This document shows positions 3,745 through 46,082 of a stretch of 64,000 bases of DNA, piece after piece; the stretch's first letter is position 1; every line of letters begins with the position of its first letter. The stretch covers positions 15,249-79,248 of the forward strand of contig CAZELO010000009.1 of NCBI GenBank assembly GCA_964513245.1, given 5' to 3'. Origin of the DNA: an uncultured Candidatus Bathyarchaeia archaeon. Lineage in GTDB: Archaea; Thermoproteota; Bathyarchaeia; Bathyarchaeales; DTEX01. The position numbers and the translations under genes are program-made. A model generated the notes under the pieces. The model made no database searches. It worked only from the letters and a program-made list of their open reading frames with translations, and was not told where the DNA came from.

Positions 3745-3836
3745 CCACCGCTACACGTCAGCGAAATAGAAGACAGAGACCCAATCGGGCACAATCAGCA
3801 GACTGAAAGGCAAGACTCGGCAGCGAGCGTGGACGC

Positions 3837-4109: not shown

Positions 4110-4133
4110 ACCAAAAAAGATATTAGGCTTTAT

Positions 4134-4559: not shown

Positions 4560-4597
4560 ATCTGCGCACGTTGTCACTTGTGCGAGATTTAGGTTCG

Positions 4598-4996
4598 TCA
4601 GGTTTTCCTAGGAACTTTGAAGTGGGATTCTCTGCCTTGGCTGACGTATTCGCCTCCGAGCTGCTCTCTAACGATGGAGGCTACTTTTGCGAAGACTTCT
4701 GAACCGAGGAACTGCCTCGGCTTTACGAGCACGTTTTCCTCAGTCACCTCAAAATAAAGCATACCCGCCAAGTCGGAAGGAAAAACCCGCTGGACATCTT
4801 CAACCGTCCGCATAGCAGCAGGGGCGCCTGCTCTCTCGAAAGATGGAGCCCCCTGAGACACTGGAGCGGAAGCAGCAACCGTGGCTCTCAGTGTTTTCGA
4901 AATTTCTGCAAGGTCCTCGGATAGAACCTTCAAGATATCGAGGAGATCGCTGATGCGTTTCAGAACTTCTTCAACGCTAGATTTCTCTTCCGCCAT
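4598..4996 (-). CDS. hypothetical protein
   Basis: ORF only. Confidence 0.3.
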   Translation of the reverse strand: MAEEKSSVEEVLKRISDLLDILKVLSEDLAEISKTLRATVAASAPVSQGAPSFERAGAPAAMRTVEDVQRVFPSDLAGMLYFEVTEENVLVKPRQFLGSEVFAKVASIVREQLGGEYVSQGRESHFKVPRKT

Positions 4997-5214: not shown

Positions 5215-7149
5215 TTATCTGTGAATCAATCGAGAGGAGTTTAGGAATAGGATGAAGTCAGGAAGCGCATGGGCTGCGGCGGCCATCGTGGGACTCAGGA
5301 CGCCCATGTACGCCAGTGTCACCCCAACAATGTTGAAGACAATGCTTGCTGCAATGTTTTGCCTGATCACCTTGAAGGTCTGATCTCCAATCTTGATGGC
5401 TTCCGGGATTTTCGTTAGATCGTCGGTCATCAGGGCGATGTCCGCCGTCTCTATAGCCGCGTCTGTCCCTGCTGCTCCCATAGCGATGCCCACGGAGGCC
5501 TGAGCCAATGCCGGCGCATCGTTTATGCCATCCCCCACCATCACCACTTTCTTTCCGCTCTCCACGAGTTTCCTCACCACGTCAACCTTTCCTTCGGGAA
5601 GCATCTCGGCAAAGACTTCGTTTATGCCTGCCTTCTTCGCTATGGCCTGGGCAGTACGAGGGTTGTCGCCAGTGAGCATGATCAACCTTACACCTCTATC
5701 CTTCAACTCTTTCAGGGCACGGATGGCATCCTCTCTTAAGGTGTCTGATACGGAGATGACACCACAAACGTTGTTGTCGTGGGCAACCAGCATCGCGGTC
5801 TTCCCCTCTTCTTCCTCATGAAGCATGTAATCCTCCACATCCGCAGGAATGTCGACATCCCTGTCTCTAAGCAGCTCCCTGTTGCCTATAGTCAGAGTCT
5901 GATTGTTACAAGTTACAACAACGCCCTTTCCACGTATGACATGGCATTCCTCGTGTTCAGGTATCTCGATCTGATGATCTTTTGCAGTTTCAAGAATGGC
6001 TCCGGCTAAGGGATGCCCAGAGTGTTTCTCGGCGATGGCCGCTAAAGTGAGTATCTCCCTCTCATTATGCGCATCGAAGCCCTTGACATCCGTTACTCTA
6101 GGCTTCCCTATGGTGAGGGTTCCAGTCTTGTCCATTACAACCGTGTCTACGCGTCCCAACTCCTCCAAATAGATCCCGCCTTTTACGATAATCCCCTTTC
6201 TCGCCGCCCTTCCCACACTTGCCACTATGGCAAGGGGTGTCGCCAACGCCACTGCACATGGACAGGCTACCACGGCCACTGCGATGGAAGAATTGATGTT
6301 TCTGGTGATCATGAAGGTGAGGAAGGCAACGACTAGAACGAGGGGTACGAAGTAGGTTGCAAAGCGATCAGCCGCCTTTTGAATCGGCGCCTTAGACCGT
6401 TCAGCCTCCTCGACTAGCTCAATGATCCGAGCCAATGTGGTATCCTTGCCTATCTTGGTTGTTCTCACCTCAATCAGGCCAAGCTCATTAATAGTGCCAG
6501 TAAACACTTCGTCGCCAACCTCTTTCTCCATAGGCATGGATTCTCCAGTGATCGTGGCTTGGTTGACAGAGGCGTGTCCAGCAACCACGATACCGTCTAC
6601 TGGTATTCTCTCTCCGGATTTGACGATAACAACATCGTCCTGCTTCACCTCACTTGTGCCTATCTCCACCTCGACGGCATTCCGCTTAACAACTGCTTTC
6701 TTGGGCGATATCTCTATCAACCCACGGATGGCGGATCTGCCCTTACTGATGATAAACTTGTCTAAAAACTCGGCTATCAGCATAAAAAAGGCTATGACAG
6801 CAGCTGACAGAAACTCGCCTATGGACAGCGCGGCGATCATACCCATGGTCATTGCCACTTCAGCCGTTATCGATTTGGCTTTAAGGTCAAGATACGCCCT
6901 CTTGAAGAGTGGCAAACCACCGAAAAGGGCTACTACGAGTCCGACTATGTCAAGGGAAACGAAAGGACGCAGAGCCTCAGACCAACTAACCAAGATCATC
7001 AGACCAACCGCTAAGATAAGAGAAAGTTCCAAGGTTCGATTTCCATCGGGAACCTCTTTGATCTCCGAATCCTGCAAACTGATGCGAACCCCTGAAGACG
7101 GCTGAACATGCCAGACGTTCATTTGATCCGATAATAAGGTTGCTGGCAA
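5215..7149 (-). CDS. heavy-metal translocating P1B-type ATPase (no N-terminal HMA domain)
   Basis: CPC in TM6 (VVACPCAVALATP), DKTGTLT, GDGINDAPAL; N-terminus has no CxxC metal-binding domain. Confidence 0.85.
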   Translation of the reverse strand: MPATLLSDQMNVWHVQPSSGVRISLQDSEIKEVPDGNRTLELSLILAVGLMILVSWSEALRPFVSLDIVGLVVALFGGLPLFKRAYLDLKAKSITAEVAMTMGMIAALSIGEFLSAAVIAFFMLIAEFLDKFIISKGRSAIRGLIEISPKKAVVKRNAVEVEIGTSEVKQDDVVIVKSGERIPVDGIVVAGHASVNQATITGESMPMEKEVGDEVFTGTINELGLIEVRTTKIGKDTTLARIIELVEEAERSKAPIQKAADRFATYFVPLVLVVAFLTFMITRNINSSIAVAVVACPCAVALATPLAIVASVGRAARKGIIVKGGIYLEELGRVDTVVMDKTGTLTIGKPRVTDVKGFDAHNEREILTLAAIAEKHSGHPLAGAILETAKDHQIEIPEHEECHVIRGKGVVVTCNNQTLTIGNRELLRDRDVDIPADVEDYMLHEEEEGKTAMLVAHDNNVCGVISVSDTLREDAIRALKELKDRGVRLIMLTGDNPRTAQAIAKKAGINEVFAEMLPEGKVDVVRKLVESGKKVVMVGDGINDAPALAQASVGIAMGAAGTDAAIETADIALMTDDLTKIPEAIKIGDQTFKVIRQNIAASIVFNIVGVTLAYMGVLSPTMAAAAHALPDFILFLNSSRLIHR

Positions 7150-7184
7150 AGATTGCCAATGTTGTGCCTAGGATTTGTCAAAGC

Positions 7185-7574
7185 CTAAGCAACGGTGACC
7201 CTGACAACTTCGATGCCTCTTATGACCCTAAGCCTCTCAGCAAACTCTTTTATCCTTGCGATGTCTCCTCTTGTGAGGATAACTTCAAGGCAGGACCCAC
7301 GCATATGATTGTGCAAGGTGGTTGAAATAATATCCTCATACTTGTGTTGCAGTCGGCTAATCTCTTCAAACATGCCTCTTCTATCAATGTTAAAGGTTAT
7401 GGTAACCACGGCCAATGCTGTTCCTGTCAACCTCGACGACCACTCAGCTTCACTGAACAAGGTTCTTAGGGCCTCTCGCACAATCTCTGAACGACTGGCG
7501 TATTGCTTCTCTTTAGCCATTCCATCGAGCTTTACTATCATCTCGTTCGGAAGCGATACATTGATTGTACCCAT
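7185..7574 (-). CDS. nikR: NikR-family nickel-responsive regulator (RHH + C-terminal metal-binding domain)
   Basis: N-terminal RHH (TINVSLPNEMIVKLD...SRSEIVREALR) and HxH...C motif (TLHNHMRGSC); start moved to internal Met. Confidence 0.65.
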   Translation of the reverse strand: MGTINVSLPNEMIVKLDGMAKEKQYASRSEIVREALRTLFSEAEWSSRLTGTALAVVTITFNIDRRGMFEEISRLQHKYEDIISTTLHNHMRGSCLEVILTRGDIARIKEFAERLRVIRGIEVVRVTVA

Positions 7575-7778
7575 GCATAACCCTCTAGGACAATTACTAT
7601 CTAACATCAATGATGCTTATCTACTCATCCCGTTCTTTTACTCGAACAACATGTTGCCATAGTATCGTATAGCTAAAATCTAGCATCGTGGCTTACTATT
7701 ACGAGGTCTTAACCGACAACACGCTAGAAACAGACCAGCAAAATGGAGCCCAAATGTATCGAAATAGAGGAAGGATAG

Positions 7779-9216: not shown

Positions 9217-9549
9217 ATGATTTGGCCAAAAACAAAGGCTGCTCTATGGAGATATACGCCTCGTGGAATCAAGGTATTCCTCAAAAAGACCACTTGGTAT
9301 GATCATATTTGTCGTGGTCATGTAGAGATGAATAATTCATTGGAGGATGTGATAAGAGCATTAGAGAGACCTGAAGCAACCCATGCCTTCAAAAGAGATA
9401 GATTTAGCTACTGCTATTCTCAACGGAGAGGAAGCTTTATAATGTTAGTTTACAAGGTAAGTGGAAGATTGGGATGGGTGAAAACGGCATACATGGTACA
9501 AAACCCTTATGTAGAAGTAGAAGGCTATAATAGAGTGTGGCCAATATGA
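9217..9549 (+). CDS. hypothetical small protein, possible toxin-like partner (DUF4258-like) of downstream DUF2283 gene
   Basis: 13-bp overlap with next ORF in a TA-like arrangement; no strong motif. Confidence 0.3.
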   Translation: MIWPKTKAALWRYTPRGIKVFLKKTTWYDHICRGHVEMNNSLEDVIRALERPEATHAFKRDRFSYCYSQRRGSFIMLVYKVSGRLGWVKTAYMVQNPYVEVEGYNRVWPI

Positions 9550-9830
9550 GTGAAATAATAGATGTGGCTACAAATGTTTTTCATGCGATAAAACCAGACT
9601 CTGAAATAACTATAGATTACGATGAGGAAGCAGATGTCCTGTATATCAATTACCATAATAGCCCTCTTCAGAAAGCAGATTTTGGAAGAAGATTCGGTGA
9701 CTATATTGTTAGAATAAGACAAACATTAGTGATTGGTGTCACAATCATTAATGCCTCACTTCATTTGAAGAAGAGTTTTTCAGATAAACCATCAATACTT
9801 ACCGAACCATTTACTCTTCGGATTGCCTAA
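9537..9830 (+). CDS. DUF2283-family small protein (antitoxin-like)
   Basis: ITIDYDEEADVLYI ... GVTIINAS matches the DUF2283 pattern. Confidence 0.5.
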   Translation: MANMSEIIDVATNVFHAIKPDSEITIDYDEEADVLYINYHNSPLQKADFGRRFGDYIVRIRQTLVIGVTIINASLHLKKSFSDKPSILTEPFTLRIA

Positions 9831-10948
9831 CTGCCTTTTTTGGCATTCTGAATTAGCGTTATCCATTTGTTTTCTCCTTTAATTTCAACTCCGCAGGCTT
9901 CGGAAGGCGTCTTTCCCTTCAAGGCTTCATGCGGTCTTACAAAATTATGGTATATTTGATAACCTTTTAGAATTGGTGTATCTTTCGTCTTCAATCCTCT
10001 CATAACTTTTTCTCTGTCTCTGATTTCTCCGTTTAGTCTTTCCATTTTGTTGTTGTTTTTGTCTCCTCTGATGTGGATGTGTGCGATGTGTTGTGTTCTC
10101 GGAGCTTTCAACGTCCAAAACTCTTTCTTGTATGCGTCATGATAGGCGGGTAATCCATCTGTGATTATTGTTTTAGGGCTTTTGCCCATGAGTTCTTTGC
10201 CCATTTTGAAGAGTTTTCTTGCGTCATGCTTGTATTTGGATTCTGCGACTTCTTGAGCTATCCAATATCGTGTTTCGTCATCCATTAGGGCGAAGACGTA
10301 CTTCATGTCTCCGTTGATTTTAACCCATAATTCGTCGGCTCTCCAAGTGTCTGAAACATCGATTTTCAGTTTCATCACATATTCTTCCATCAGTCGGATG
10401 TACTTCTTAATCCACATGTAAACCGTCTTGTGAGAGATTTTTACTCCTAACAGTCTAAGCGATTTCTGAGTGTTCCTTAATGATTCTCCGCTGAAATACA
10501 GTTGCATGGCTGTCGTTACTGCTTGCGGGTTATGCTTCATCTTCTCAAAGCCAATATTCACGCTGAATGTCTTTCCGCAATTATCACATATGAAACGTTG
10601 AATGTCTCCACTTTTGTTTCTTCTAATCCCGAACTTCTTTATGTTATCTGAATCACAGAACACACATCTACAAACATCCGTTATCGGCTCTATCTTCCTT
10701 GACTCAACTTCTCTTCTCAACCTTTCGGAGAACTCAACAGCCCAAATATGCTTACACTTCACGCCACGATAAATATGATCTGGGCAAGAACACAGCCATC
10801 CAACCTCAGAATTGATGACTTCATATTCTCCGCCGTTTGATTGTGATTTAACCTTGTAGCAACGATTGTCTGTTCTTTCGATGTGGTTCAGCTTCGCTAT
10901 TTCAAGACCTTTCTGTTCACGGATGTTGGCGGTTATCTGTGTTGCCAT
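9827..10948 (-). CDS. IS6-family DDE transposase with N-terminal SWIM-type zinc finger
   Basis: WRADELWVKINGDMKYVFALMDDETRYW, ITDGLPAY, NNNKMERLNGEIRDREKV, YHNFVRPHEAL; CSCPDH...CKH zinc finger. Confidence 0.8.
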   Translation of the reverse strand: MATQITANIREQKGLEIAKLNHIERTDNRCYKVKSQSNGGEYEVINSEVGWLCSCPDHIYRGVKCKHIWAVEFSERLRREVESRKIEPITDVCRCVFCDSDNIKKFGIRRNKSGDIQRFICDNCGKTFSVNIGFEKMKHNPQAVTTAMQLYFSGESLRNTQKSLRLLGVKISHKTVYMWIKKYIRLMEEYVMKLKIDVSDTWRADELWVKINGDMKYVFALMDDETRYWIAQEVAESKYKHDARKLFKMGKELMGKSPKTIITDGLPAYHDAYKKEFWTLKAPRTQHIAHIHIRGDKNNNKMERLNGEIRDREKVMRGLKTKDTPILKGYQIYHNFVRPHEALKGKTPSEACGVEIKGENKWITLIQNAKKGS

Positions 10949-13266: not shown

Positions 13267-13827
13267 TTGATGAAAGAGGCACAGATGCTCGGGAGATACG
13301 TCATGATTCAAGGCTTCAGGAAAGCCAAAATCGAGAACGTGGACGCACTGCTAAAGATTGCCAGAGAAGCGTCGAGCGATTGCGATGTGCAGTTTTTTGA
13401 CGCAGGGATGATTGCTGGTTTCGACCACCTGTACTTTGCCACGTTGAACGCTCTGAAAGCATTCGAAGCGAAGCAGAACATATCCAAGAACCTTGCTGTT
13501 GAGGCGCTTCTGTTCGCTTCGGGACAGCACCAGATCAAGAGAGCTGTGGAGCTTCTGGGACTCAAGCATGGTTCCTCCGAAGTCATCGTCCTCGTAATCG
13601 CTGAGGACAGGTCGAAAGACCTCAAGACACTAGAGCGTATCTCGAAATTGTTGGGAGGCGAAGCCTGCTTGGATGTCATCGAGTTGACGGATGAAAAGGC
13701 TGCCAGAATAAAGGCTGCATTCGGCATAACGGATCTCGAGATTGAGTCAACGCTGAGGCAGTCAGAGAAAGAGGCTCTGTCCATGTTGCTGGTTGAACGG
13801 GGCGCCCTGCTGGTCACGCAGCGCTAG
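13267..13827 (+). CDS. cgi121: KEOPS complex subunit Cgi121
   Basis: EALLFASGQHQIKRAVELLGLKHGSSEVIVLVIAED aligns with M. jannaschii Cgi121 (ILVRASGQRQIHEAIKIIGAKDGNVCLICED) as recalled. Confidence 0.65.
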   Translation: MMKEAQMLGRYVMIQGFRKAKIENVDALLKIAREASSDCDVQFFDAGMIAGFDHLYFATLNALKAFEAKQNISKNLAVEALLFASGQHQIKRAVELLGLKHGSSEVIVLVIAEDRSKDLKTLERISKLLGGEACLDVIELTDEKAARIKAAFGITDLEIESTLRQSEKEALSMLLVERGALLVTQR

Positions 13828-14357
13828 ATGAGTCTTTCCTTCACGACTGAAAGTATGTCTCCGGGCTTGATGACCGAGATGCCTGTTAAGCCGCCTAAGA
13901 CCTCCACTAAGACAATTTTGTCAGGTTTGTCTAGGTTCACCTTCCGCTCTATGTTTCCAGCCACCGCGTCGATTATGGCTTTCATCGAAAGTTCAGTGTG
14001 CCTCTTCTCAACAGTTACGCGGAAGATTTCGCCCTCCAATATTTTCTGAGACAGGTTCATGCTTGCTGTGTTTATTTCCGCGAGGTTCGTTCGGACCACT
14101 ACCTCGATCGGTGCCACCTTAAGCGTATAGCGGAACTCTTCCGGGCGTTCTTCTAGGATTCGCCTCAATCCCTCGACTGCCTCGAAGGGGTCCAGAACTG
14201 TTTTCGCAACAACTAGACCCAGAATTTCTGTCTTTTCCACTGTGGCGTCGCGGTCTCCGAGTTCTCCGAGAAGGAACCAGATTTCTGCGCACGCCTTGTT
14301 TTCTAATCTTCGCGGGCTCGAAACCAACAGATTGAAATCATCGATCAACGGAGCCAT
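13824..14357 (-). CDS. THUMP-domain protein (Tan1-like, putative tRNA modification)
   Basis: Size and N-terminal pattern (AEIWFLLGELGD) typical of small archaeal THUMP proteins. Confidence 0.4.
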   Translation of the reverse strand: MAPLIDDFNLLVSSPRRLENKACAEIWFLLGELGDRDATVEKTEILGLVVAKTVLDPFEAVEGLRRILEERPEEFRYTLKVAPIEVVVRTNLAEINTASMNLSQKILEGEIFRVTVEKRHTELSMKAIIDAVAGNIERKVNLDKPDKIVLVEVLGGLTGISVIKPGDILSVVKERLI

Positions 14358-27633: not shown

Positions 27634-28782
27634 GTGAGCGTTGCAGAAACTGAACCTGAAAGTACTTCATTAGGCGTTGGGAAAGGCACGGAAATGACCG
27701 AGCTAAAAAATGTCGGAAAGACGAAACAGACAGCCATACTGAAAGTGAGCCCCGAAGAGCCAGAGGCGGACAAGATTAGGCTGGCTGCCGAAGTTATCCG
27801 AAAGGGCGGCTTAGTAGCCTTCCCAACAGAAACCGTTTACGGCCTCGGGGCAGACGCCCTTAACCCGAAGGCAGTCGCGGATATCTATGCTGCCAAGAAA
27901 CGACCGCTTGACAACCCGATCATAGTGCACATAGCCAACAAAGAAGAAATCTACAGACTGACAGAGGCACCCCCAACATGCATGAAAGCGCTCATTGACA
28001 GTTTCTGGCCTGGACCGCTGACGTTGGTGCTGAAGGCTTCCAAGGTCGTTCCCAAAATAACGATGGGAGGCTTAGACACCGTGGCAATAAGGATGCCAAG
28101 CCACCAAGTAGCCCTCGCCCTCGTTGCAGAGTCCGGCGTGCCCATCGCTGCGCCAAGTGCGAACCTTGCTGGAAAGCCAAGTCCAACAACTGCAGAGCAT
28201 GTGAAGCAGGATCTTTTTGGAAGGATAGACATGATTCTGGACGCTGGACCAACAATTGTCGGCGTAGAATCAACAATCCTAGACTTGACATCAGACCCCC
28301 CACAGATATTGAGACCAGGCGGCACACCATACGAGGAGCTCCGCAGAACCCTAAGCCGAGTTGTGCTTCATCCAGCTGCAACAGCTGAAAGAAAAGTTAG
28401 ATTCACCCAAGCCCGTTCGCCAGGCACAAAGCACAAGCATTACGCGCCGAACGCCAAGATGTTCCTGATCGAAGGGAAGCCCGATGATGCTGCACGGAAG
28501 GTGCAGGAAATTGCAGACAGCCACATGAAGATGGGAAAGAAGGTCGGCATCCTAGCCACCGACGAAAGCAAAGCCGACTACAAAGCAGATGTAGTCAGGT
28601 CCTTGGGAAGCGGAGATGACCCATCCACAGCCGCGAAGAACCTTTTTAGGCTGCTCAGAGAATTCGACGAAGACAGGGTTGACATAATAGTCGCGGAGGG
28701 AATAACATCGAAGGGCTTAGGCCTAGCGGTCATGAACAGGTTGAGACGAGCCTCAGGCTACAATACCGTCAAGGCGGGTTAG
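27634..28782 (+). CDS. sua5: L-threonylcarbamoyladenylate synthase Sua5 (YrdC + Sua5 domains)
   Basis: KGGLVAFPTETVYGLGADA...KKRPLDNPIIVHI; start may be at 27694. Confidence 0.85.
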   Translation: MSVAETEPESTSLGVGKGTEMTELKNVGKTKQTAILKVSPEEPEADKIRLAAEVIRKGGLVAFPTETVYGLGADALNPKAVADIYAAKKRPLDNPIIVHIANKEEIYRLTEAPPTCMKALIDSFWPGPLTLVLKASKVVPKITMGGLDTVAIRMPSHQVALALVAESGVPIAAPSANLAGKPSPTTAEHVKQDLFGRIDMILDAGPTIVGVESTILDLTSDPPQILRPGGTPYEELRRTLSRVVLHPAATAERKVRFTQARSPGTKHKHYAPNAKMFLIEGKPDDAARKVQEIADSHMKMGKKVGILATDESKADYKADVVRSLGSGDDPSTAAKNLFRLLREFDEDRVDIIVAEGITSKGLGLAVMNRLRRASGYNTVKAG

Positions 28783-29744
28783 CTTTCGCCGTCTGCGTCT
28801 TCTCCCTCGGTGTCTTCCACGCCTTTCTCGGTTATCATGAAGCGGGTAGGCGTTTCGGGTAGATATGGGCTGTCGATCACTCTTGCGATTCTAGATCTTT
28901 TGCTTCCTTTGCGGAGAAAGACTCTGTGCGTGCATGCATGGGCCATGATGTTTCCACCCGCAGGCTTGTTTGGGTCTCCGAAGAAAGCTGTCGGATTGGC
29001 CTGAACTTGGTTTGTCAGGACGACGGATAGGTTGCAGGCTTCAGCAAGCCTAATGAGCTTGTGCAGATACTGATTCAGGTTTTGCTGCCGTTCTGAAAGG
29101 TTCTCCCGTCCGATGTATTCTCCTCTGAAGTGGCTGATCATGCTGTCGACTATGACGAGTTTCACGTTATTTTCTGGGCAGAGGGAAAAGAGTTTATCGA
29201 TCAGGAGGCATTGGTGGCTGCTGTTGTATGCCCTCGCCACGAAGATGCCGTCGGCGATGCTTCGGGGGTCCAGCCCCATCTCTGAGGCAATTTGGTATAC
29301 TCGTTCGGGCATGAATGTGCCTTCGGTGTCGATGAAGGCAACTTTGCCATTTAAGCCCCCTTTCTCATGCGGGAGCTGAGCCATGACAGAAAGTGTGAAA
29401 CATATCTGGGTTTTGCCTGAGCCGAATTCGCCTATTAGTTCGGTTATGGCTTGTGTTTCGACTCCGCCGCCTAGGGCTTCGTCCAGTTTCCTGCTTCCCG
29501 TTGTGCATTTTTTCATTGCCTTCCTTTTCTCGTAGAAGTCTTGGGCGGTTTTGAACTCGGCGGATATCATTTTCCTCGCGGCTTCTTGTGTCTTCAGTAT
29601 CGTGTTGAAGCCGATGCCTGTTTTCTCCATGATTTCGCGTGGGGGTGCCATTGCAAAGGCTTCTATGGTTGTGTATCCCGCAGTTCTGAGTTTTGATGCT
29701 GTTGTGGAGCCTACGCCGTCTAGGGATTCTAGGTCGTTCAACAT
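28779..29744 (-). CDS. radA: DNA repair and recombination protein RadA
   Basis: N-terminal HhH, Walker A GEFGSGKTQ, 321 aa. Confidence 0.9.
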   Translation of the reverse strand: MLNDLESLDGVGSTTASKLRTAGYTTIEAFAMAPPREIMEKTGIGFNTILKTQEAARKMISAEFKTAQDFYEKRKAMKKCTTGSRKLDEALGGGVETQAITELIGEFGSGKTQICFTLSVMAQLPHEKGGLNGKVAFIDTEGTFMPERVYQIASEMGLDPRSIADGIFVARAYNSSHQCLLIDKLFSLCPENNVKLVIVDSMISHFRGEYIGRENLSERQQNLNQYLHKLIRLAEACNLSVVLTNQVQANPTAFFGDPNKPAGGNIMAHACTHRVFLRKGSKRSRIARVIDSPYLPETPTRFMITEKGVEDTEGEDADGES

Positions 29745-29981
29745 TTAGATTCCCCTCCATTCGATGTTTTTGGCTGATATGCCGTTCCAACATCGTCGGC
29801 AGATCGGGAGCCTTCTACCCTTGTGCATTATGTAAAGTGCGATATCGGTGCGTCCACATTCGTGGTCCCAGGGGTTCATGCATTTCTCTTTTTCGAATGC
29901 AACAGAATTGGATATTCTAGTTCTAGGTCTCAGATTGCTCTTCTTTTTCTTCATCGGTTCAGCTCCCTTCGCTGCCCACAT
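29745..29981 (-). CDS. hypothetical small zinc-binding protein
   Basis: C-x5-H-x-C ... C-x2-C arrangement; immediately upstream of radA. Confidence 0.25.
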   Translation of the reverse strand: MWAAKGAEPMKKKKSNLRPRTRISNSVAFEKEKCMNPWDHECGRTDIALYIMHKGRRLPICRRCWNGISAKNIEWRGI

Positions 29982-30064
29982 CTGTGTTTTGGATATTTAA
30001 GGCCTCTGTGAAAGTGTGGGGGGAGGGGGTGCGAAGAAAGAATTGATGCACGGTCAAGATTGGT

Positions 30065-30370
30065 TTAGGGTTTGCCTTCAAGGTATTTCAGTCTTTGAAA
30101 CATCTTGGAGACTTCTTTGGCAACCTCGTTCTCAAGGTTGATCTGATAGGTCCTCGGCGTGAACGGATACTGTTTGATCCAGCCTAGCTCAACAAGCACT
30201 TTAAGGTGCTCTTCCACCGTTGGCGTTCTGAGCCCCGTGGCTTTCACCAAGGCGTATCTCGTGAATGCCTCGTCGGGATGCAGGATCAGGTGCGCCAGGA
30301 TTCTGAATTTGCTTCCGCCGCCGAATCCTTTTTCTAGGGTTTCCCAGATGTCATGTTCTTTGCTTTTCAT
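30065..30370 (-). CDS. winged-helix DNA-binding protein
   Basis: Small wHTH pattern; 4-bp overlap with orc1/cdc6. Confidence 0.4.
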   Translation of the reverse strand: MKSKEHDIWETLEKGFGGGSKFRILAHLILHPDEAFTRYALVKATGLRTPTVEEHLKVLVELGWIKQYPFTPRTYQINLENEVAKEVSKMFQRLKYLEGKP

Positions 30371-31581
30371 CGGTGGTCCTGCCTTAGTTGTTGTGTGAGG
30401 TTGTTCAGGAATTTTTCGAGGTCCGTAAGCGAGGCTCCTGTGATGCCGAGTTCGGTTAGAGACTTCATTTCGACTATGCCTCTGTGGATGAGGTCCTGCA
30501 GGTGTTCCTCGAATTTTTCTGTGGGCTTTGCGCCGTGCTCTTCGCAGAGGACTTCGTAGCTTAGCTTCGCGTCTCTCAAGCCGATGTAGGCTGACCTGTT
30601 CGCTTGCAGGCTTTGCACGAAGGCTAGAAGGATGAGCCTGTTTGTTTCGTCCAGGTTTGTGATGTCCTCTGATGTGACGGTTGGGTTCGTCTCGCTGTAG
30701 ACCTTTCTAACGTGGTCGGGCAGAACACTTTTTGAGCCTGTGTTCTCGGCTAGCGTGCCCGCATAGTACAGCAGTTCCAGCCCGACGCGTAGGTCGCCGT
30801 TCACAGGCGGGTTAGCCGTTATGTCGCTTATGAGCCCCAAAGTCTCTTCGTTCACCGCATTGGGGCAGAAAGCCTCTGCAATCCGCTCTTCGAGTATGTC
30901 TCGGATTTGGCGGGCTGTGTATCTTGGGAACTCGATTATGCCCATTCCGAGGGTGGATTTCTCGCTGGGTTCCAGCATGCTGTGCCACTTCAGCGACCTT
31001 GCGATGAATATTTCGCCGATCACTGGCGGTGGTTCGCCGGGATGCATTTCGGGGATGCGTGTCAGGTCGTAGATTATGTGTTCGCGGGGGTTCGTCTGGA
31101 CGAAGTAGTCTATCTCGTCGAAGGTGATTATGAGGCGCCTGCCGTCAACCCGCAGGTACTCGATGAGCTGCCTGATCATCTCTTCCGGGCTCAGGCTCCG
31201 CGTCGAGATCTGCGTCGTCACCTTTCTGACGAGGTTTCCGAAGAGGACGAAGCGGGTTGTGCCGTCGACCTTGCAGTTGACGTAGACGTGCTGCAGGTTG
31301 ACGCCTTCCTTCTCTGCGTACGCGGTGATGGCTTCGCCGAACTTCAGCGTTGTGCAGGTTTTGCCGGTTCCCGTGTTGCCGATTATCTGCGTGTATCGGG
31401 GATAGGCATTCTCGACATTTTTGACCGTTTCGCCATAGATGGCGTGGAGCCGCTGCATCTGGTCGTCTCTGTGGCGTAGACACTTCGGGATATAGTACGG
31501 CGAAAGCTTGTTCCTATCCGTGAAGATCGGCGAGCCACGCAGAGACATTGATCCAAACCTGACAGAATATATCTCGATCAC
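30367..31581 (-). CDS. cdc6: Orc1/Cdc6 replication initiator (AAA+ with C-terminal wH)
   Basis: IGNTGTGKT Walker A, DEIDY Walker B, 404 aa. Confidence 0.85.
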   Translation of the reverse strand: MIEIYSVRFGSMSLRGSPIFTDRNKLSPYYIPKCLRHRDDQMQRLHAIYGETVKNVENAYPRYTQIIGNTGTGKTCTTLKFGEAITAYAEKEGVNLQHVYVNCKVDGTTRFVLFGNLVRKVTTQISTRSLSPEEMIRQLIEYLRVDGRRLIITFDEIDYFVQTNPREHIIYDLTRIPEMHPGEPPPVIGEIFIARSLKWHSMLEPSEKSTLGMGIIEFPRYTARQIRDILEERIAEAFCPNAVNEETLGLISDITANPPVNGDLRVGLELLYYAGTLAENTGSKSVLPDHVRKVYSETNPTVTSEDITNLDETNRLILLAFVQSLQANRSAYIGLRDAKLSYEVLCEEHGAKPTEKFEEHLQDLIHRGIVEMKSLTELGITGASLTDLEKFLNNLTQQLRQDHR

Positions 31582-31734
31582 AAGCCTATAAACCTAACAA
31601 CTGTTCTGGGTCTGTGGTCTCGTTTCGCTGTTTCATTGTGTTTTCTGTAGACTTGAAGGGTGGCGTCTTCGTTGAGACAGTAAAACTTATATTGGACTTA
31701 ATCTGAACTAATAGTGGACTTGAGGTAAACCGTC

Positions 31735-32151
31735 ATGGAAGTTCCTCTTTTGGGCAGAACATATGCCTTCGATCTCTTGAGAGTCCTTGCAGGCGGAAGG
31801 TTGACTTTCACTGGTCTACTTAACGAGGTGAAGGTTTCCCGCACAACCCTCAGCAACACGCTTCAAGCCTTAGCCGATGAGGGCTACGTCAGCAAAGAAG
31901 CCATCGGACGATACACGGTCTATCGCATCTCAGAAAAAGGCATCCAAACCCTTCAGCTCCGATCACAAACAGACGGAGCCCTATTAGAGCATCTGACCGA
32001 TTATGTTCTCAAACGGCTTAAGGAAAGGGGTTTGCTCCAACAATATGATGTTGACAGAAGGGAGCTTTCCGAGGAGATACAGAAACGAACCCATAAGCTT
32101 CTGAAAGAAATAGTTGAAGATGTCGAGAAAACCATCACGGAGGGAGAATAA
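31735..32151 (+). CDS. winged-helix transcriptional regulator
   Basis: HTH pattern; first gene of the paralog array operon. Confidence 0.45.
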   Translation: MEVPLLGRTYAFDLLRVLAGGRLTFTGLLNEVKVSRTTLSNTLQALADEGYVSKEAIGRYTVYRISEKGIQTLQLRSQTDGALLEHLTDYVLKRLKERGLLQQYDVDRRELSEEIQKRTHKLLKEIVEDVEKTITEGE

Positions 32152-32153
32152 TC

Positions 32154-33194
32154 ATGATGGACAACTTCTCCGAGAGTCTAGATTTTCCTATCCCGGACGA
32201 AGTTAAAAAAGCGATCGAAGAGATCCTTGTGGACGGAAAGGTAAACGAAGAATTGACGAGGACAGCGATCCTCAAGTTGCTTAAAGGAAAGGGAGGCGAA
32301 ATCAGATTGGTGAAAATGCCGGGAGAAAGCACGGGGCTACAAGTCGGAGGGTATGAGGAAGGTGACATTTCTGCTTTGGTCGAGATAGTGAATGAAAACT
32401 ATGTGGACTATGCCGACTTTTTCTACGAATTCATTCCCTACAGCGAAGAAACATTCCGTTCGGCGGTTAGAGCTCGACCTGTTGTCTTTGTGGCGAAAAG
32501 TCAGACAATCGAAGGCTTCATAGCATGCAGTGCGGATTGGGGCGTCAGGATAGACATGTTCTGCGTCAAACCGGGGCCTAACAGAACAAAAATCGAAGAT
32601 ATACTCATCTCAAGAGTCGAAGAAGAGGCAAAAAACCGCAAAGTTACCGTTTGGCTTAGCTCCGACAGTCGTATCGCAAAGTTTGAAAAGAGAGGCTACG
32701 AAGTCTATGGCGGATTTTACCACCTCGTGAGGAGTCTGCACAATGTCCCTGCGATTCCGCCACTGCCAGAGGGAGTTACCCTGAGAGGAATGGCTAAGGG
32801 AGAAGAGAAAACGATTACACAGACCTTTTATGATCCAAACCATGTCGGCACTAGCATCTTTAAGCCCGGATTCACAAAAACTTGGAAAGAAGACTGGAAC
32901 CACGTAGCAGAGTTGAATGGAAAAATCATCGCCATTATCTGCACCAGACCTGACCACAAGTTCAACGCGCACTTCAATGCGAAGAGGGCTGAAATCTGGG
33001 GACCGATTGTGCTTTCTGAGCACCGGGGAAAAGGCATTGAAAAAGCGTTCGAGTGTTACGCTCTGCGTTCCCTTCGGGAGAAGGAGATGGAAGTAGCCAC
33101 CGTATGGGATGTCGAATGGCCGCCTGAACCCACGAACCTTGAAATGAGCCTAGGTTTCAGGGTGAAAAATTATTGGAAATTCATGCGCAAGTAA
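32154..33194 (+). CDS. protein with conserved ~55-aa N-terminal module fused to two GNAT-like acetyltransferase domains
   Basis: N-module FPIPDEVKKAIEEIL...KGKGGEIRL; GNAT motif A-like HRGKGIEKA. Confidence 0.4.
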   Translation: MMDNFSESLDFPIPDEVKKAIEEILVDGKVNEELTRTAILKLLKGKGGEIRLVKMPGESTGLQVGGYEEGDISALVEIVNENYVDYADFFYEFIPYSEETFRSAVRARPVVFVAKSQTIEGFIACSADWGVRIDMFCVKPGPNRTKIEDILISRVEEEAKNRKVTVWLSSDSRIAKFEKRGYEVYGGFYHLVRSLHNVPAIPPLPEGVTLRGMAKGEEKTITQTFYDPNHVGTSIFKPGFTKTWKEDWNHVAELNGKIIAIICTRPDHKFNAHFNAKRAEIWGPIVLSEHRGKGIEKAFECYALRSLREKEMEVATVWDVEWPPEPTNLEMSLGFRVKNYWKFMRK

Positions 33195-33225
33195 GATTAT
33201 TGCGTTTCACATAAGGTCCCAAGAA

Positions 33226-34242
33226 TTGGGGAGAGTAGATATGGAAGACAAGTTTCTTGATGTGTTCGAGTTTCCTCTTCCGGATGATGTGAAGAGGACG
33301 ATTGAAGAGATTCTGAGGGAGGAAGGAGCCAGAAAGGAACTGATGAGGATGGCACTCCTTGAATTCGTGAAAAGAAAGGGAGGCGAGATTAGATTGAGCG
33401 TTAATCAGTCCAGAAGCCTTGATAACTTGGAGCAGATGATCAATGTTTCTTCAAGATATGCTGAGAAGTATCAAGATCATCCGCTCATAGAAGGCGCCGT
33501 CTTGCTGAGTCCTCATATGAAGATCGGCGAAGAGTACGACTTTGAAATCCTCTTCGTACTTTCAGATGCGGCATTGCCCCCGATGATGGGGGAATGGAAG
33601 AAAGGCATGGGAGACAAACCAATAGGAGGTTTGTGGGATGAGTGGGAGATCTTCAACGACAAGACTCTTCCTTTCGATGAGGATAAGTTTGAGGGAAAGA
33701 TTGTTCATCCCATGTTTATGACGCCAACAGTGATAAAGAATGAATTGGCTGATGCGCAGAAGCATCCCACGCTGGCACTTTCGTTGTTCCAATATGGCGT
33801 CACCGTCTATGATAAGCGGGGTATGGTCAAAAAGATAGTCAGTGAGATACTTCCCCCTTCCGAAGAATACTTCAAGCATTGGAAAAAGAAGAGATATGGA
33901 GAATTCGAGAATCTGCTGTGGAGCCTAGAAAGTTTTCTTGAAGAGGGCGATACGGCTTCGGCGGAAATAGTATCCGTTGACGCTGTCAAAACTTTTCTTC
34001 AACTTATGTTCTCCGTGGACAAGAAAATAGAACCCCATCAACATCCAGGGTCCAAAAGAATTCTGTCAGCTTCAAGGAAACATCTTTCGCCAGAAATCGC
34101 GGAACACGTTGAAAATGTATTAGCAACTCACGATCTGCGTGAACGACTAAAGCTATTGCAGGACCTACGTTCATCAGTAGCCGAGAAGGACGAATGGATG
34201 AAAAAATATCATGAAACCCTCATGAAATACAGGAAAGAATGA
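33226..34242 (+). CDS. paralog with the same N-terminal module fused to a putative nucleotidyltransferase-like core and helical C-terminal domain
   Basis: N-module FPLPDDVKRTIEEIL...KRKGGEIRL; G..S...DFEILFVLSD resembles a minimal NTase motif. Confidence 0.3.
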   Translation: MGRVDMEDKFLDVFEFPLPDDVKRTIEEILREEGARKELMRMALLEFVKRKGGEIRLSVNQSRSLDNLEQMINVSSRYAEKYQDHPLIEGAVLLSPHMKIGEEYDFEILFVLSDAALPPMMGEWKKGMGDKPIGGLWDEWEIFNDKTLPFDEDKFEGKIVHPMFMTPTVIKNELADAQKHPTLALSLFQYGVTVYDKRGMVKKIVSEILPPSEEYFKHWKKKRYGEFENLLWSLESFLEEGDTASAEIVSVDAVKTFLQLMFSVDKKIEPHQHPGSKRILSASRKHLSPEIAEHVENVLATHDLRERLKLLQDLRSSVAEKDEWMKKYHETLMKYRKE

Positions 34243-34245
34243 GAA

Positions 34246-34374
34246 ATGGAAGATACGCCGCCTGAGTTTCTTAGTCTTCCTCTAGCAGACGATGTTAGGA
34301 AAGCAATCGAAGAGATCCTTCAAGAACAAGACACATCAGTTGGAAGCAGATCATCGCACAGTCACCATTAGATT
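34246..34374 (+). pseudogene. truncated third copy of the shared N-terminal module (42 aa)
   Basis: Own translation: MEDTPPEFLSLPLADDVRKAIEEILQEQDTSVGSRSSHSHH then stop. Confidence 0.45.
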
Positions 34375-34511
34375 CAAATCCTAAGACGCGAAGCAACGGA
34401 GAGGCCGTCCTTTGTTGGACAAAGCGGAAGAACGAATGTTGCGCAAAATAGGATCTGCACCGGTAAGTTGCTTTTGATAATCATTATCAATTCGGAATTC
34501 TGGTTGTTAAT

Positions 34512-34680
34512 CAAATCTACAAAGTCTGCCGGTAGGCTCCCATTTGTCAGTGACTGACAAAACAGAAAAAATTTTGTCAGACAAATCTACAAAGGCACTC
34601 TGGCAGGCTCTCTGCCGTTCGACAGTCACTGTCAAAACACAGGAAAATTTGACAGTCAAATCTACAAGGGTCCTCTCATC
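34512..34680. repeat. tandem direct repeat, 2.3 copies of a 70-76 bp unit with embedded perfect palindromes
   Basis: CAAATCTACAAAG at 34512, 34582, 34658; TGTCAGTgACTGACA and GACAGTcACTGTC; GGCAGgctctCTGCC. Confidence 0.6.
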
Positions 34681-34750
34681 TCAGCGCCCGCTTTTGCTCA
34701 TCAGTACAGCGGTTGCCCCAGCGTTCTCTGAGGCATCAAAGAAAGAGCGG

Positions 34751-35527
34751 TTAGGGGAGTTTTTCGAGTTCTTTTGCGTGTCCCCTTATTGGCATCTGTC
34801 TTTTGGTTGGTGCTGCCCAGTGTGCGGCGTTCGTGATTATTCTGAGGACGTTTGGGTCGTAATAGGTCGGGTAGGTCTCGTGTCCCGGCTGGAAGTAGAA
34901 GATTTTGCCTGAGCCCCTGTAGAAGCAGCAGCCGCTGCGGAAGACTTCTCCGCCTTTGAACCAGCCTATGAGCACGAGCTCGTCGGGCTGAGGTATGTCG
35001 AAGTGTTCGCCGTACATTTCTTCGTGCTCAAGTTCGAAGTAGTCGCCGATGCCCCCGACAATCTGGTGCCCCGGAGACACAACCCACAAACGTTCCTTCT
35101 CGCCGGCTTCCCGCCACTTCAGGTTGCACGTGGCGCCCATAAGCCGCTTGAAAATCTTCGAGAAATGAGCCGAATGAAGCGCAATCAGCCCCATGCCCTC
35201 GTTCACTATCCTGCTGTAAATCTTGTCAACGACAAGGTCGCTCACCTTCGCATGCGCCGCATGCCCCCACCAAACAAGCACATCAGTGACCCCGAGAACC
35301 CCGTCAGTCAACCCATGCTCAGGCTCGTCAAGAGTAGCCGTCCGAACCTCGAAACCAGCCTGACCACGCAGGTGCTTCGCTATGGCGCCATGTATGCCCT
35401 CGGGATAGACCGCCGCAACCTTCGGACTCGTCTTCTCATGCTGAAATTCGTTCCACACCGTGACCCGTACGGTTCCGCCCATTCCGTCCACCCGGGCAAT
35501 AGTTGAGTCAAGACCGAGAGATAACAT
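34751..35527 (-). CDS. ThuA-family class I glutamine amidotransferase-like protein
   Basis: [15 protein letters not shown] patterns. Confidence 0.55.
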
Positions 35528-35637
35528 TTTCCGTATGATTGGCGGGGCGACCTAAACGTTTCTTGATTTATAAGTACCGATGCCCTATCTTCACTGCATT
35601 GCCTATCGTCGGTCATCCAAACGTGGTGTGACATTCC

Positions 35638-36720
35638 ATGAACAACAGGGAACGCTTCTCAGCCTGCATGAACTACGAGAGTTTCGATCGGGTGCCCCTC
35701 TGGGAGTTCTGGGGATTCGAAACGGAGACCATTAACCGCTGGCACCGCGAGGGACTGCTGGACATGAGTGTAACCGATTTCTTCGAGCTGGACACGTGGG
35801 AACTCGTCCAGATAGATTCGGGATCCATCCCCAGATTCGTCTCAAAAACCATCAGCGAAGACGAGAGATACAGGATCGTGAACAGGGAAGACGGCGTCAC
35901 CGTCAAAGTCTCACGCGACAGACCGAACATGATCTACATCGGCTTAGACTACCCAGTCAAGAACCGAACAGATTTCGAAAGAATAAAGAAACGATATAAA
36001 CCAACAGACATGATGAGATACCCGAAGGCATGGTCCGACGAACTGCTGGACTACTATGAAGAGGCGGAACACCCCATCGGACTTTGGGCACCAGGCTTCT
36101 TCAGGCAGGCGCAGAACCACTGGATGGGAACAAAAGAAACGCTTGTCGCCTTTCATAAAGACCCGAAGCTCGTCCACGAGATGTTCAGTTTCTGGGCAGA
36201 ATTCCTCATCGAAGCCATGAGGCAAGTTGTTGAAAACGCAAAAATCGATTTCGTATGCCTCACCGAGGACATTGCTGGCAGAGACGGAGCGCTCATCTCG
36301 CCCAGAATGTACAGCGAATTCATTCTGCCCTATGAAAAAGAAGTGCTCGCCTTCTTCAAGAAGAACGGGATAGCCACTCTCATGGTGGACTGCAGCGGAA
36401 ACATAGAGCATCTTATACCCGTCTTTCTTGAGGCGGGATACAACTGCCTGACCCCTGTTGAGACGCAGGCTGGAATGGACGTCTTGCAGCTGAACAAAGC
36501 GTACGGCAAGAAACTCCGCTACATAGGGAACATGTCGCTCCAAGCCATCGTTGAAGGCGGAGAAATCATCGAGAAGGAGGTCGAGTACAAGGCTTCTCTG
36601 GTCAAAAAAGGAGGATACATACCGAGCACTGACGACATAGTGTCCCCAGATGTCCCCCTCAAAAACTACACTCGCTACCTCAACATTCTCAAAACACTCC
36701 TGTCACCGCATGGCTCCTAA
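35638..36720 (+). CDS. uroporphyrinogen decarboxylase (URO-D) family protein, paralog 1
   Basis: URO-D/MtaA-like fold; paralogous to 54395 and 58162. Confidence 0.55.
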   Translation: MNNRERFSACMNYESFDRVPLWEFWGFETETINRWHREGLLDMSVTDFFELDTWELVQIDSGSIPRFVSKTISEDERYRIVNREDGVTVKVSRDRPNMIYIGLDYPVKNRTDFERIKKRYKPTDMMRYPKAWSDELLDYYEEAEHPIGLWAPGFFRQAQNHWMGTKETLVAFHKDPKLVHEMFSFWAEFLIEAMRQVVENAKIDFVCLTEDIAGRDGALISPRMYSEFILPYEKEVLAFFKKNGIATLMVDCSGNIEHLIPVFLEAGYNCLTPVETQAGMDVLQLNKAYGKKLRYIGNMSLQAIVEGGEIIEKEVEYKASLVKKGGYIPSTDDIVSPDVPLKNYTRYLNILKTLLSPHGS

Positions 36721-45544: not shown

Positions 45545-45821
45545 CTTTTTACTTCTCCCGGACCGCTATGCAACTATTTTCGTTTGCGGAAGAGCATGAT
45601 GTTTTCAGGTGTTGTGCAGGCGTATCTGGAGGCTGCTCAGTTTTTTGAAATAAACGGAGCAAGAACTGCCGTTGAGACATTTAGCCGAGGGGGCTACAGT
45701 TGCCGATCAATGGATCTATAGAGAATAACGTTATCTCGGTATTGCGAATATCGATTTGGGGTTTGAACCCGTTGTTCACTAGGCTTTAATGTCTTTTTGT
45801 AGCTCTTTCATGAGAGGTAGC

Positions 45822-46082
45822 ATGAGCTATAGACGAGGTAAGCTAGAGATATACTTGGAAGTATTAAAGGCTGTGAACAAGGGTACTGAGAAGCCTACGA
45901 GGATTATGTACAAGACGAATCTGTCCTGGAAGCCCCTCACGGAGATTCTCCAGTCCATGCAGGATCAGGGTTTAATTGCCAGCCACAAGAAAGGAAACAG
46001 CACCATCTACAAGATCACTGAAAAAGGAAAAAACGTTCTCAAGTACTTTGTAGATGCGATGAACCTGATCAAAATAGAATGA
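45822..46082 (+). CDS. small winged-helix DNA-binding protein
   Basis: wHTH-like pattern. Confidence 0.35.
   Translation: MSYRRGKLEIYLEVLKAVNKGTEKPTRIMYKTNLSWKPLTEILQSMQDQGLIASHKKGNSTIYKITEKGKNVLKYFVDAMNLIKIE

Follow-up and report, generated by a model that had tools for sequence, protein, structure and literature searches.

A self-contained operon cassette occurs in a few Bathyarchaeia lineages, and the locus described here is one of its copies. The cassette is built from a constant head and interchangeable cargo, and we tentatively propose that a short module at the N-terminus of each cargo protein docks it to the regulator encoded in the head, a reading that we consider plausible but somewhat short of probable. 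Docking is supported by the strict two-way coupling of wHTH regulator and module, by the lack of the wHTH at the loci of module-less GNAT relatives in a 25-locus control, by the co-divergence of module and wHTH, as judged from pairwise identities, independently of the protein body, and by an operator that is conserved where its flanks are not, in neighbourhoods that are otherwise unrelated.

Organization of the cassette

In the 64-kb stretch of DNA analysed (the window), the cassette is flanked by core genes; its features are listed in Table 1. The wHTH stop codon and the ATG of gene 2 are 2 nt apart, and in nearly all related loci this junction measures -4 to +2 nt, which bears out the earlier suggestion that the regulator and the array behind it form an operon. 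Each wHTH is followed by one to three module proteins. The genomic neighbourhoods of the cassette are unrelated between loci, and extra GNAT and methyltransferase genes lie close to several cassettes. The module protein P0014 also derives from Bathyarchaeia. An Rfam search of positions 29500-36000 gave no match.

Table 1. Features of the cassette in the window (positions in nt)
Feature	Position	Strand	Basis or remark
Putative promoter/operator of the cassette	31677..31734	+	TATA-like CTTATAT, ACT(T) repeats, GAGGT Shine-Dalgarno
wHTH regulator gene, 138 aa	31735..32151	+	MarR/ArsR-type; Pfam MarR_2
N-module copy 1 (gene 2 residues 1-55)	32154..32318	+	HMM E 2e-25
Gene 2, N-module and double GNAT, 346 aa	32154..33194	+	Pfam Acetyltransf_1/7/10
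N-module copy 2 (gene 3 residues 1-54)	33241..33402	+	HMM E 4e-28
Gene 3, N-module, NTase-fold core and HEPN-like bundle	33241..34242	+	Fold; degenerate motifs
Remnant of an N-module-methyltransferase fusion	34246..34386	+	Alignment to the intact gene in L001

The N-terminal module

The sequence-only reading had described one N-terminal module common to three consecutive genes, and this similarity survives proper alignment. By BLASTP, genes 2 and 3 align over residues 1-52 only (27/52 identical, 52%; E 2e-13), the rest being unalignable, and an HMM built from 21 modules recovers all three copies, the third at E 4e-10, with no other match in the 64 kb. As had been suspected, the module lies outside recognised families, since its profile has no significant match among PDB sequences, Pfam, NCBIfam or PHROGs. 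It is not a ubiquitous domain fused promiscuously, a possibility raised at the outset, being both rare, with 16 clusters in a set of 1.84 billion representative proteins, and strictly locus-specific. A homologous-protein search with the module profile returned five short proteins only and nothing beyond the exhaustive search, and a scan of GTDB species-representative genomes found no relative, so that the family seems to be absent from them. Judged by its sequence, the module is a new family, and the evidence favours the initial guess of a new domain with a targeting or regulatory role.

In 34 module sequences, P12 and L40, together with P14, E23, E33, G47, G48 and I50, show little or no variation, and outside these positions identity drops to ~30-40%. 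For the module alone, AF2 (pLDDT 77) predicts an extended PxP segment, helices at residues 15-25 and 28-45, and a disordered GGEIRL tail. The linker behind copy 1 is flexible and ~10 residues long, and the linkers between module and body are modelled by AF2 at low confidence, which indicates that the module is an independent domain on a tether. A ubiquitin-like cleavable tag (with the GG of GGEIRL), an encapsulin or microcompartment targeting peptide and a secretion signal were considered and dropped: a beta-grasp would need a longer and less helical sequence than the module, a shell gene is absent, and the module is charged and has no hydrophobic core segment.

The wHTH regulator and its putative operator

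The regulator is predicted to bind DNA. It consists of a winged helix (residues ~7-75) and a ~60-aa helical C-terminal part, and exceeds the Pfam cut-offs (in brackets) for MarR_2 at 32.1 bits (27), TrmB at 28.3 (25.6), HTH_27 at 28.6 (22.2) and HTH_5 at 27.7 (22), with further wHTH families also matching the gene. Orthologues with 39-78% identity lie directly upstream of every module gene examined.

The wHTH gene is preceded by five ACT(T) repeats with an exact 11-nt period, at 31685, 31696, 31707, 31718 and 31729, and the Shine-Dalgarno sequence falls between repeats 4 and 5. In 15 loci, which represent both subtypes, the ~58 nt before the wHTH start can be aligned and four repeats keep an invariant A-C (alignment columns 37/48/59/70); the DNA further upstream is unrelated. 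No 11-nt ACT periodicity was found elsewhere in the window. This segment is probably the promoter/operator of the cassette and, because it spans the expected transcription start, the wHTH may repress its own promoter.

Cargo proteins encoded in the window

Gene 2 continues, as previously read, into two GNAT regions with an HRGKGIEKA motif. They extend over residues ~65-195 and ~205-346, with Pfam matches to Acetyltransf_7/10 on residues 88-184 and to Acetyltransf_1 on 249-295; the latter, at 37.6 bits against a cut-off of 20.7, places the protein in the GNAT superfamily. At the acetyl-CoA motif Q/R-x-x-G-x-G/A, the C-terminal GNAT reads R-G-K-G-I-E, with a non-canonical last position, and the N-terminal GNAT reads N-R-T-K-I-E. 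Among orthologues this region is variable or carries insertions, and R291 is nearly invariant. We found 28 homologues of gene 2; the alignment with its module-less relatives runs from residue ~60 to the C-terminus, and these module-less orthologues are conserved in many Bathyarchaeia.

The start codon of gene 3 is most likely ATG 33241 rather than TTG 33226, because its orthologues all begin at the corresponding Met and P0001, the database protein, has 333 aa. Behind the module and a flexible linker come an NTase-fold alpha/beta core (~62-205) and then a HEPN-like helical bundle (~207-333). The body is nearest in fold to the antibiotic nucleotidyltransferases LinB, ANT(6) and ANT(4'). The proposal of an NTase-like core with a helical C-domain thus holds for the fold, but not for the canonical catalytic motif: the hG[GS] of hG[GS]-x9-13-[DE]h[DE]h is absent, with LLS in its place, and D-F-E is kept. 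L-S-x10-D-F-E is found in 4/5 gene 3 orthologues and is lost in P0041. The protein has no match in Pfam or NCBIfam, PF01909 (NTP_transf_2) included, and the Rx4-6H HEPN RNase motif is absent from its helical bundle. P0042, which represents another cargo type, matches PF01909 at E 1.5e-7.

The third copy had been taken for a decayed copy terminating after 42 aa. It does end early and is decayed, but the short ORF (34246-34371) encodes 41 aa and the copy is not a duplicate of its neighbours. It retains the first half of the module, truncated after helix A and with the second conserved Pro replaced by Ala. Positions 34246-34331 of the window align with 4861-4943 of L001, and 34328-34386 with L001 5893-5950, the final codons of an intact 365-aa methyltransferase. 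The 5' 86 nt therefore run straight into the last ~59 nt of the same gene type, in a different reading frame, corresponding to a deletion of ~949 bp relative to the intact L001 gene, with the junction and a frameshift at CAAGA, ~34327-34331; the peptide QLEADHRTVTIRFKS, read in the alternative frame, corresponds to the C-terminal end of P0005. As judged from these alignments, copy 3 is an internal-deletion remnant of a third type of fusion, between the module and a class-I SAM methyltransferase. Alignment of the three modules at the DNA level, which had been suggested as a means of dating the duplication, shows ~65-70% identity; each has its closer match in the orthologous module of another genome, not in the neighbouring copy, so the duplication is old.

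Coupling of regulator and module across unrelated cargoes

A profile search for fusion partners, as proposed in the sequence-only reading, placed the module always at the N-terminus, with at least ten unrelated bodies behind it. These include three GNAT types, two methyltransferases, two NTase-fold types, a TBP domain, a Cdc48-N/Cdc48_2 domain and an all-helical protein. For every module protein on a readable contig, the gene directly upstream encodes either a cognate wHTH or a further module protein. Conversely, scanning metagenomes with the wHTH alignment yielded 23 loci, and in 20/20 of those with downstream DNA a module ORF comes next, although these loci are not independent, many coming from one set of JGI metagenomes, and the cassette sample as a whole is small and phylogenetically narrow. 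Neither the module nor the cassette wHTH was found within 4 kb of any of 25 genome loci of the module-less GNAT (0/25), the HMMs remaining blank even at E<10.

Identity matrices for 12 double-GNAT cassettes correlate strongly between wHTH and module (r=0.78, Mantel p=6e-4), compared with r=0.29 for wHTH and body and r=0.22 for module and body. In L065, a subtype-B-like body is combined with a subtype-A module and wHTH. Comparison of the wHTH and module alignments with hhalign gave a probability of 0.2%, which indicates no homotypic adaptor.

Proposed mechanism and alternatives

The constant head comprises the 11-nt-periodic ACT promoter, the MarR/ArsR-type wHTH gene and the ~50-residue module that opens the next gene, which is translationally coupled to the wHTH. 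The variable cargo is the protein carried on a flexible linker behind the module; in the window it is represented by the double GNAT, the ANT/LinB-like NTase-fold and HEPN-like protein, and the SAM methyltransferase remnant. The module may serve as a docking adaptor for the wHTH protein or for the wHTH-operator complex, by which the regulator could hold the cargo proteins in place, control them or receive feedback from them. Several considerations weigh against docking. The 3' end of the wHTH gene and the 5' end of the module are contiguous DNA, and a single crossover in the linker would explain their co-inheritance with no contact between the proteins. There is also no obvious reason for a choice of cargoes as unlike as GNATs, a TBP domain and Cdc48-N, and sub-threshold similarities of the module to CopG/RHH-like proteins leave room for DNA binding or mere dimerisation.

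These similarities are the basis of an unlikely but appreciable alternative, in which the module is an RHH-like domain for dimerisation and DNA binding, the cargoes are PutA-like enzyme-repressors acting on the operator repeats, and the wHTH is a separate co-regulator. The AF2 model has an extended-helix-helix form, and the order and lengths of the elements (an extended stretch with LP at its end, a ~15-residue helix, a G and a ~18-residue helix) follow the CopG/Arc pattern. Sub-threshold Pfam values for the module (RHH_1 0.12, VapB_antitoxin 0.033) and the likewise sub-threshold similarity of 5/34 module members to a CopG-like repressor family in PHROGs (best E 0.02) point the same way. Some RHH repressors recognise direct-repeat operators, and the operator of the cassette consists of direct repeats. 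A much bolder extension of docking, and an improbable one at present, would make the wHTH and module a hitherto unrecognised archaeal recruitment system, in which a hub bound to DNA in a sequence-specific way tethers interchangeable activities directed at chromatin and transcription to its sites through one docking domain. The activities concerned would be those of the acetyl-, methyl- and nucleotidyl-transferases, of the TBP paralogue and of the substrate-binding domain of Cdc48-N type, and their assembly as a prokaryotic counterpart of eukaryotic activator-coactivator recruitment is similarly improbable.

Resistance enzymes classically include GNATs and methyltransferases, and genes of this kind are often under the control of MarR-type regulators. 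The cassette could accordingly be read as an operon for small-molecule (xenobiotic or antibiotic) modification, with a ligand-sensing MarR-type repressor over acetyl-, nucleotidyl- and methyl-transferases and the module as no more than an oligomerisation or stability tag; the LinB and ANT-like fold of gene 3 and the additional GNAT and methyltransferase genes near several cassettes also fit. However, the TBP, Cdc48-N/Cdc48_2 and all-helical cargoes are non-enzymes, gene 3 is without the canonical NTase motif, module-less GNAT relatives work with neither tag nor regulator, and a mere tag is not expected to co-diverge with a regulator. We therefore regard this reading as rather unlikely, and the AAC/ANT-like pairing suggested earlier is not supported, given the missing hG[GS] of gene 3 and the poor fit of the TBP and Cdc48-N cargoes. 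Still less likely is a toxin-antitoxin-like or conflict module, with growth-arresting effectors (a GNAT, NTase or MTase that modifies tRNA or protein) as cargo and the wHTH as an autoregulating antitoxin that neutralises them by way of their common module. It would account for the compact, putatively autoregulated two-gene core with overlapping genes, for the variable genomic location and for the swappable effector bodies and decayed copies, and toxins of both the GNAT and NTase kinds exist (PMC9177977, PMC6698736, PMC7641770, PMC13000451). However, the ~290-aa double GNAT has conserved module-less orthologues in many Bathyarchaeia and appears housekeeping-like, gene 3 lacks the HEPN and MNT catalytic motifs, a toxic role is unlikely for TBP and Cdc48-N bodies, and the cassette in the window sits among core genes. 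PADLOC defence models gave no specific match, only generic wHTH, MTase and NTase similarities, and no cassette was found on the viral contigs searched. The earlier GNAT/MNT toxin pairing likewise fails on the widespread module-less relatives of the double GNAT and on the absence of both an RHH antitoxin and Rx4-6H. Lastly, the module could be a functionless by-product of gene capture behind the wHTH, left in place when a resident gene recombines at its start and then carried along passively. Head and body do recombine at the linker, but (near-)invariant positions in 34 otherwise divergent sequences and retention of the module on at least ten bodies imply purifying selection, and this explanation is very improbable.

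Comparison with known systems

PutA (an RHH domain with proline catabolic enzymes), BirA and NadR are enzyme-repressor fusions. Like the cassette as proposed here, they use a small N-terminal domain to link an enzyme to transcriptional control of its own operon; in these proteins, however, a DNA-binding domain is fused to one enzyme, whereas in the cassette DNA binding presumably resides on the separate wHTH and one adaptor serves many cargoes. With ANT/LinB and with MNT-HEPN proteins, including the fused FhepTA (PMC13000451) and HepT/MntA (PMC7641770), gene 3 shares a two-domain architecture in which a HEPN-like four-helix bundle stands behind a Pol-beta-type NTase fold. These families differ from gene 3, which retains only D-x-E (lost in P0041) and has neither hG[GS] nor Rx4-6H, and they have no counterpart of the N-module and wHTH partner.

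In the GNAT/RHH toxin-antitoxin systems TacAT, AtaRT and KacAT (PMC9177977, PMC6698736), an upstream gene for a DNA-binding partner overlaps the GNAT gene, as in the cassette; the operon is autoregulated, as that of the cassette may be, and the cassette may also have an RHH-like element. Their toxins are single-domain GNATs (~160-180 aa) with a separate RHH (DUF1778) antitoxin, whereas the cassette has the module fused to a ~290-aa double GNAT, a MarR_2 wHTH upstream and non-GNAT cargo as well; no cassette protein matches DUF1778 in Pfam or NCBIfam. The effector-associated domains (EADs) and other adaptor domains of prokaryotic conflict systems (Kaur, Burroughs, Iyer and Aravind 2020, PMC7159879) resemble the cassette in that a small helical adaptor is carried by many unrelated effectors and lies beside a constant core gene, coupling varied effectors to one core. 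However, EADs are homotypic, with the same domain on core and effector, whereas the wHTH has no module-like part according to the hhalign comparison above. Their core is an NTPase sensor rather than a small DNA-binding protein, and the cassette is archaeal.

Implications

Should the module prove to be a divergent RHH domain or a plain oligomerisation tag, the finding would shrink to a lineage-specific regulatory quirk. If instead the module docks on the regulator, the cassette would provide a compact new archaeal docking pair, consisting of a ~50-residue tag and a 138-residue partner, and a natural example of modular wiring in which one regulator head serves many interchangeable cargoes; such a pair might, in addition, find use as a tool for orthogonal tethering. 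In the TBP and Cdc48-N cargoes there is a hint of connections with transcription and with protein handling, which no annotated family would have led one to guess. Docking would give a functional handle on otherwise uninterpretable genes of the globally abundant, uncultured Bathyarchaeia.

A regulator gene and its module-bearing partners

Gene 2 and gene 3 of the window, which follow a winged-helix (wHTH) gene, encode proteins that BLASTP aligns over residues 1–52 only (27/52 identical, E = 2e-13), the remainder of each beyond this N-terminal module being unrelated. The first ~27 module residues are also present in the short ORF behind gene 3, and an HMM of 21 modules matches the 64 kb in exactly these three places, which bears out the common module proposed in the sequence-only reading.

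Coordinates of the cassette, its surroundings and features of related loci
Feature	Position	Strand	Remark
Sua5/TsaC	27634–28782
RadA	28779–29744	−
wHTH, 101 aa	30065–30370	−	overlaps Orc1/Cdc6 gene by 4 nt
Orc1/Cdc6	30367–31581	−
Replication/repair neighbourhood	27634–31581
ACT(T) repeats, five	31685, 31696, 31707, 31718, 31729
Cassette wHTH, 138 aa	31735–32151	+	ORF
Gene 2, 346 aa	32154–33194	+	ORF; starts two nucleotides after wHTH gene
Gene 3, 333 aa	33241–34242	+	ORF from ATG; ORF-finder start, TTG 33226, is upstream of the start common to all orthologues
Short ORF, 41 codons	34246–34371	+	three nucleotides after gene 3
Tandem repeats	34504–34676		two 75-nt units
Small wHTH ORF	45783–46079
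L009; L010, subtype-B cassette	1228–3079; 190–2377		non-enzyme cargoes
L001; L007; L011, module-less GNAT/methyltransferase genes	878–2212; 9288–10448, 13608–14345; 1–163, 724–1980
L011; L012, genes behind the NTP_transf_2-cargo cassette	6075–7624; 3286–4835
L023, broken double-GNAT gene (P0021)	1247–1939

A block of ~58 nt 5′ of the wHTH start codon, kept in all loci of both cassette subtypes (A and B), marks where the cassette begins on its left, at about 31677; the DNA farther upstream is unrelated. This block comprises a TATA-like CTTATAT, ACT(T) repeats of exact 11-nt period in which A-C is invariant at four successive positions, and GAGG as ribosome-binding site. No second instance of the periodic pattern occurs in the window. 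In archaeal promoters transcription is expected to begin some 25 nt downstream of the TATA box, so the predicted start lies within the repeats, and a protein bound there would repress.

Upstream of every module protein with a readable contig lies an orthologue of the window wHTH (39–78% identity) or another module gene, with junction distances of −4 to +2 nt in all architectures but one. When metagenomes were scanned with the wHTH alignment, 23 loci emerged, and a module ORF came next in 20/20 of those reaching past the wHTH gene. In the control, 25 loci with module-less relatives of the GNAT body in species-representative genomes, neither the module nor this wHTH occurred within 4 kb (0/25). 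Nothing similar to the module was found in the wHTH protein. A small wHTH ORF elsewhere in the window is weakly similar to the cassette wHTH (HMM E = 7.7e-7) and has no adjoining module gene.

Scored against 1.84 billion representative proteins, with E below 1e-7 taken as genuine, the module profile returned 16 clusters, in every one of which the module opens the protein. Many different bodies stand behind it. The double GNAT is commonest; the others are two single-GNAT types (database proteins P0043/P0038 and locus L035), class-I SAM methyltransferases of two kinds (P0005, P0032), the X body of gene 3 (P0041 has an additional helical repeat), a true NTP_transf_2 protein whose C-domain is helical (P0042, E = 1.5e-7), a protein with a TBP domain (P0039, PF00352, E = 2e-10), one with Cdc48_N/Cdc48_2 (L010, E = 6.9e-14) and an all-helical unknown protein (P0044). 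Sequence searches of Pfam, NCBIfam, PDB chains and PHROGs gave nothing significant for the module. This is the opposite of a known, ubiquitous domain fused without locus specificity, a prospect raised at the outset: the module is rare, and its promiscuity is confined to a single type of locus.

Cargo proteins and the third copy

As had been read from the sequence, gene 2 encodes a double GNAT (Pfam Acetyltransf_1, 7 and 10); from residue ~60 to its end it aligns with ~300-aa proteins without the module, which are common in Bathyarchaeia genomes. For gene 3, without match in Pfam, NCBIfam or PDB sequences, the AF2 model (pLDDT 73, pTM 0.55) has the N-module at low confidence, a disordered linker (residues 43–61), an alpha/beta core and then a confident helical bundle. 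The nucleotidyltransferase-like core with helical C-domain suggested earlier is thus right for the fold, but the catalytic signatures are non-canonical, with L-L-S in place of hG[GS] and D-F-E retained in 4/5 orthologues (D-I-G in P0041); the Rx4-6H HEPN motif is absent from gene 3. The protein is a candidate transferase by fold.

The short ORF, taken at first for a decayed copy, is indeed a remnant with a module start, but of a methyltransferase fusion. Locus L001 has the module-methyltransferase gene intact; at the DNA level, window 34246–34331 aligns to its first 83 nt and window 34328–34386 to its last ~58 nt. The window lacks ~949 bp between them, a length not divisible by three, and the two parts meet at a CAAGA microhomology. 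An ORF in another frame, which overlaps the short ORF at its 3′ end, encodes QLEADHRTVTIRFKS; the C-terminus of P0005, the methyltransferase fusion, reads ...ELETAHRTVTIGFKPEKNSPV. Copy 3 is thus what is left of a third type of fusion. The ancestral cassette had three cargo genes, as L001 still has; the order there, unlike that of the window, is wHTH, X, GNAT, methyltransferase. Cargo decay recurs in P0021, broken by a frameshift after ~200 residues. Aligned as DNA, the three window modules are only ~65–70% identical and each is nearer its orthologue elsewhere than its neighbour, so the duplications are old.

Genomic neighbourhood

Core genes flank the window cassette. To one side are Sua5, RadA and a small wHTH whose gene overlaps that of Orc1/Cdc6, a mere ~95 nt separating the Orc1/Cdc6 start from the cassette promoter; to the other are ThuA, a URO-D-like protein and the glycine-cleavage P protein. 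In other genomes the neighbours are wholly different. The interval from the cassette remnant to the divergent ThuA gene contains two tandem units, 77% identical, each with a palindrome of 17–19 nt (TTGTCAGTGACTGACAA / CGACAGTCACTGTC) and a conserved 14-mer, (T/A)CAAATCTACAA(A/G)G, which occurs three times; Rfam gave no match to the repeats. With orc1/cdc6 only ~3 kb away, they could be an origin-recognition-box-like or regulatory array; if they were an origin, the cassette would separate orc1/cdc6 from it.

Several cassettes have additional module-less GNAT and class-I methyltransferase genes nearby, on either strand and at most a few kb away. In L009 and L010 the wHTH is followed by module plus TBP-domain protein (274 aa) and module plus Cdc48_N/Cdc48_2, cut by the contig end. 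Behind the cassette with NTP_transf_2 cargo in L011 and L012 come two conserved module-less genes (330 and 184 aa) in the same orientation, which may or may not belong to its operon, and then a DprA-like gene.

Head, cargo and possible function

Identity matrices for 12 double-GNAT cassettes were compared by Mantel tests: wHTH correlates with module (r = 0.78, p = 6e-4), against r = 0.29 (p = 0.06) for wHTH and body and r = 0.22 (p = 0.10) for module and body. In L065 (Bathyarchaeia MAG GCA_041862135.1) the body is nearest subtype-B loci (79% to L007), and module and wHTH are of subtype A. The module therefore shares the history of the regulator, not of the attached polypeptide. This is compatible with a co-evolving binding pair, and also with plain recombination at the linker, because the DNA encoding the module directly adjoins the wHTH gene; on both views the unit consists of a head (promoter, wHTH, module) and swappable cargo. 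The best-supported reading, quite possible if short of probable, is a modular regulator cassette in which, by the mechanism that we infer, the module would be an adaptor and link the individual cargo proteins to the wHTH or the wHTH-operator complex. A less likely rival makes the module an RHH-like DNA-binding or dimerisation domain; the least likely makes it a functionless capture scar. For the isolated module, AF2 (alignment of 34 sequences, pLDDT 77) gives an extended segment around an invariant P-x-P, helices at 15–25 and 28–45, and a disordered tail containing the nearly invariant G-G-E-I-R.

The cassette might also be a MarR-controlled operon for small-molecule modification, with the module as a passive tag, or a toxin-antitoxin-like conflict module with the module as universal handle. 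The resemblance to GNAT/RHH and MNT-HEPN toxin-antitoxin systems (PMC9177977, PMC6698736, PMC7641770, PMC13000451) raised from the sequence does not hold, their defining features being absent here; the cassette had no specific defence-system matches and was absent from viral contigs. Among known systems, the logic nearest to the adaptor reading is seen in bacterial conflict systems with their effector-associated adaptor domains (PMC7159879), from which the cassette differs in its heterotypic pairing, a small wHTH as core and a module of a new family. The module domain and cassette architecture are real, statistically solid, previously undescribed and narrow in distribution. On the adaptor reading the cassette would belong among adaptor-mediated modular systems, an already known principle, to which it adds a new domain and a new architecture.
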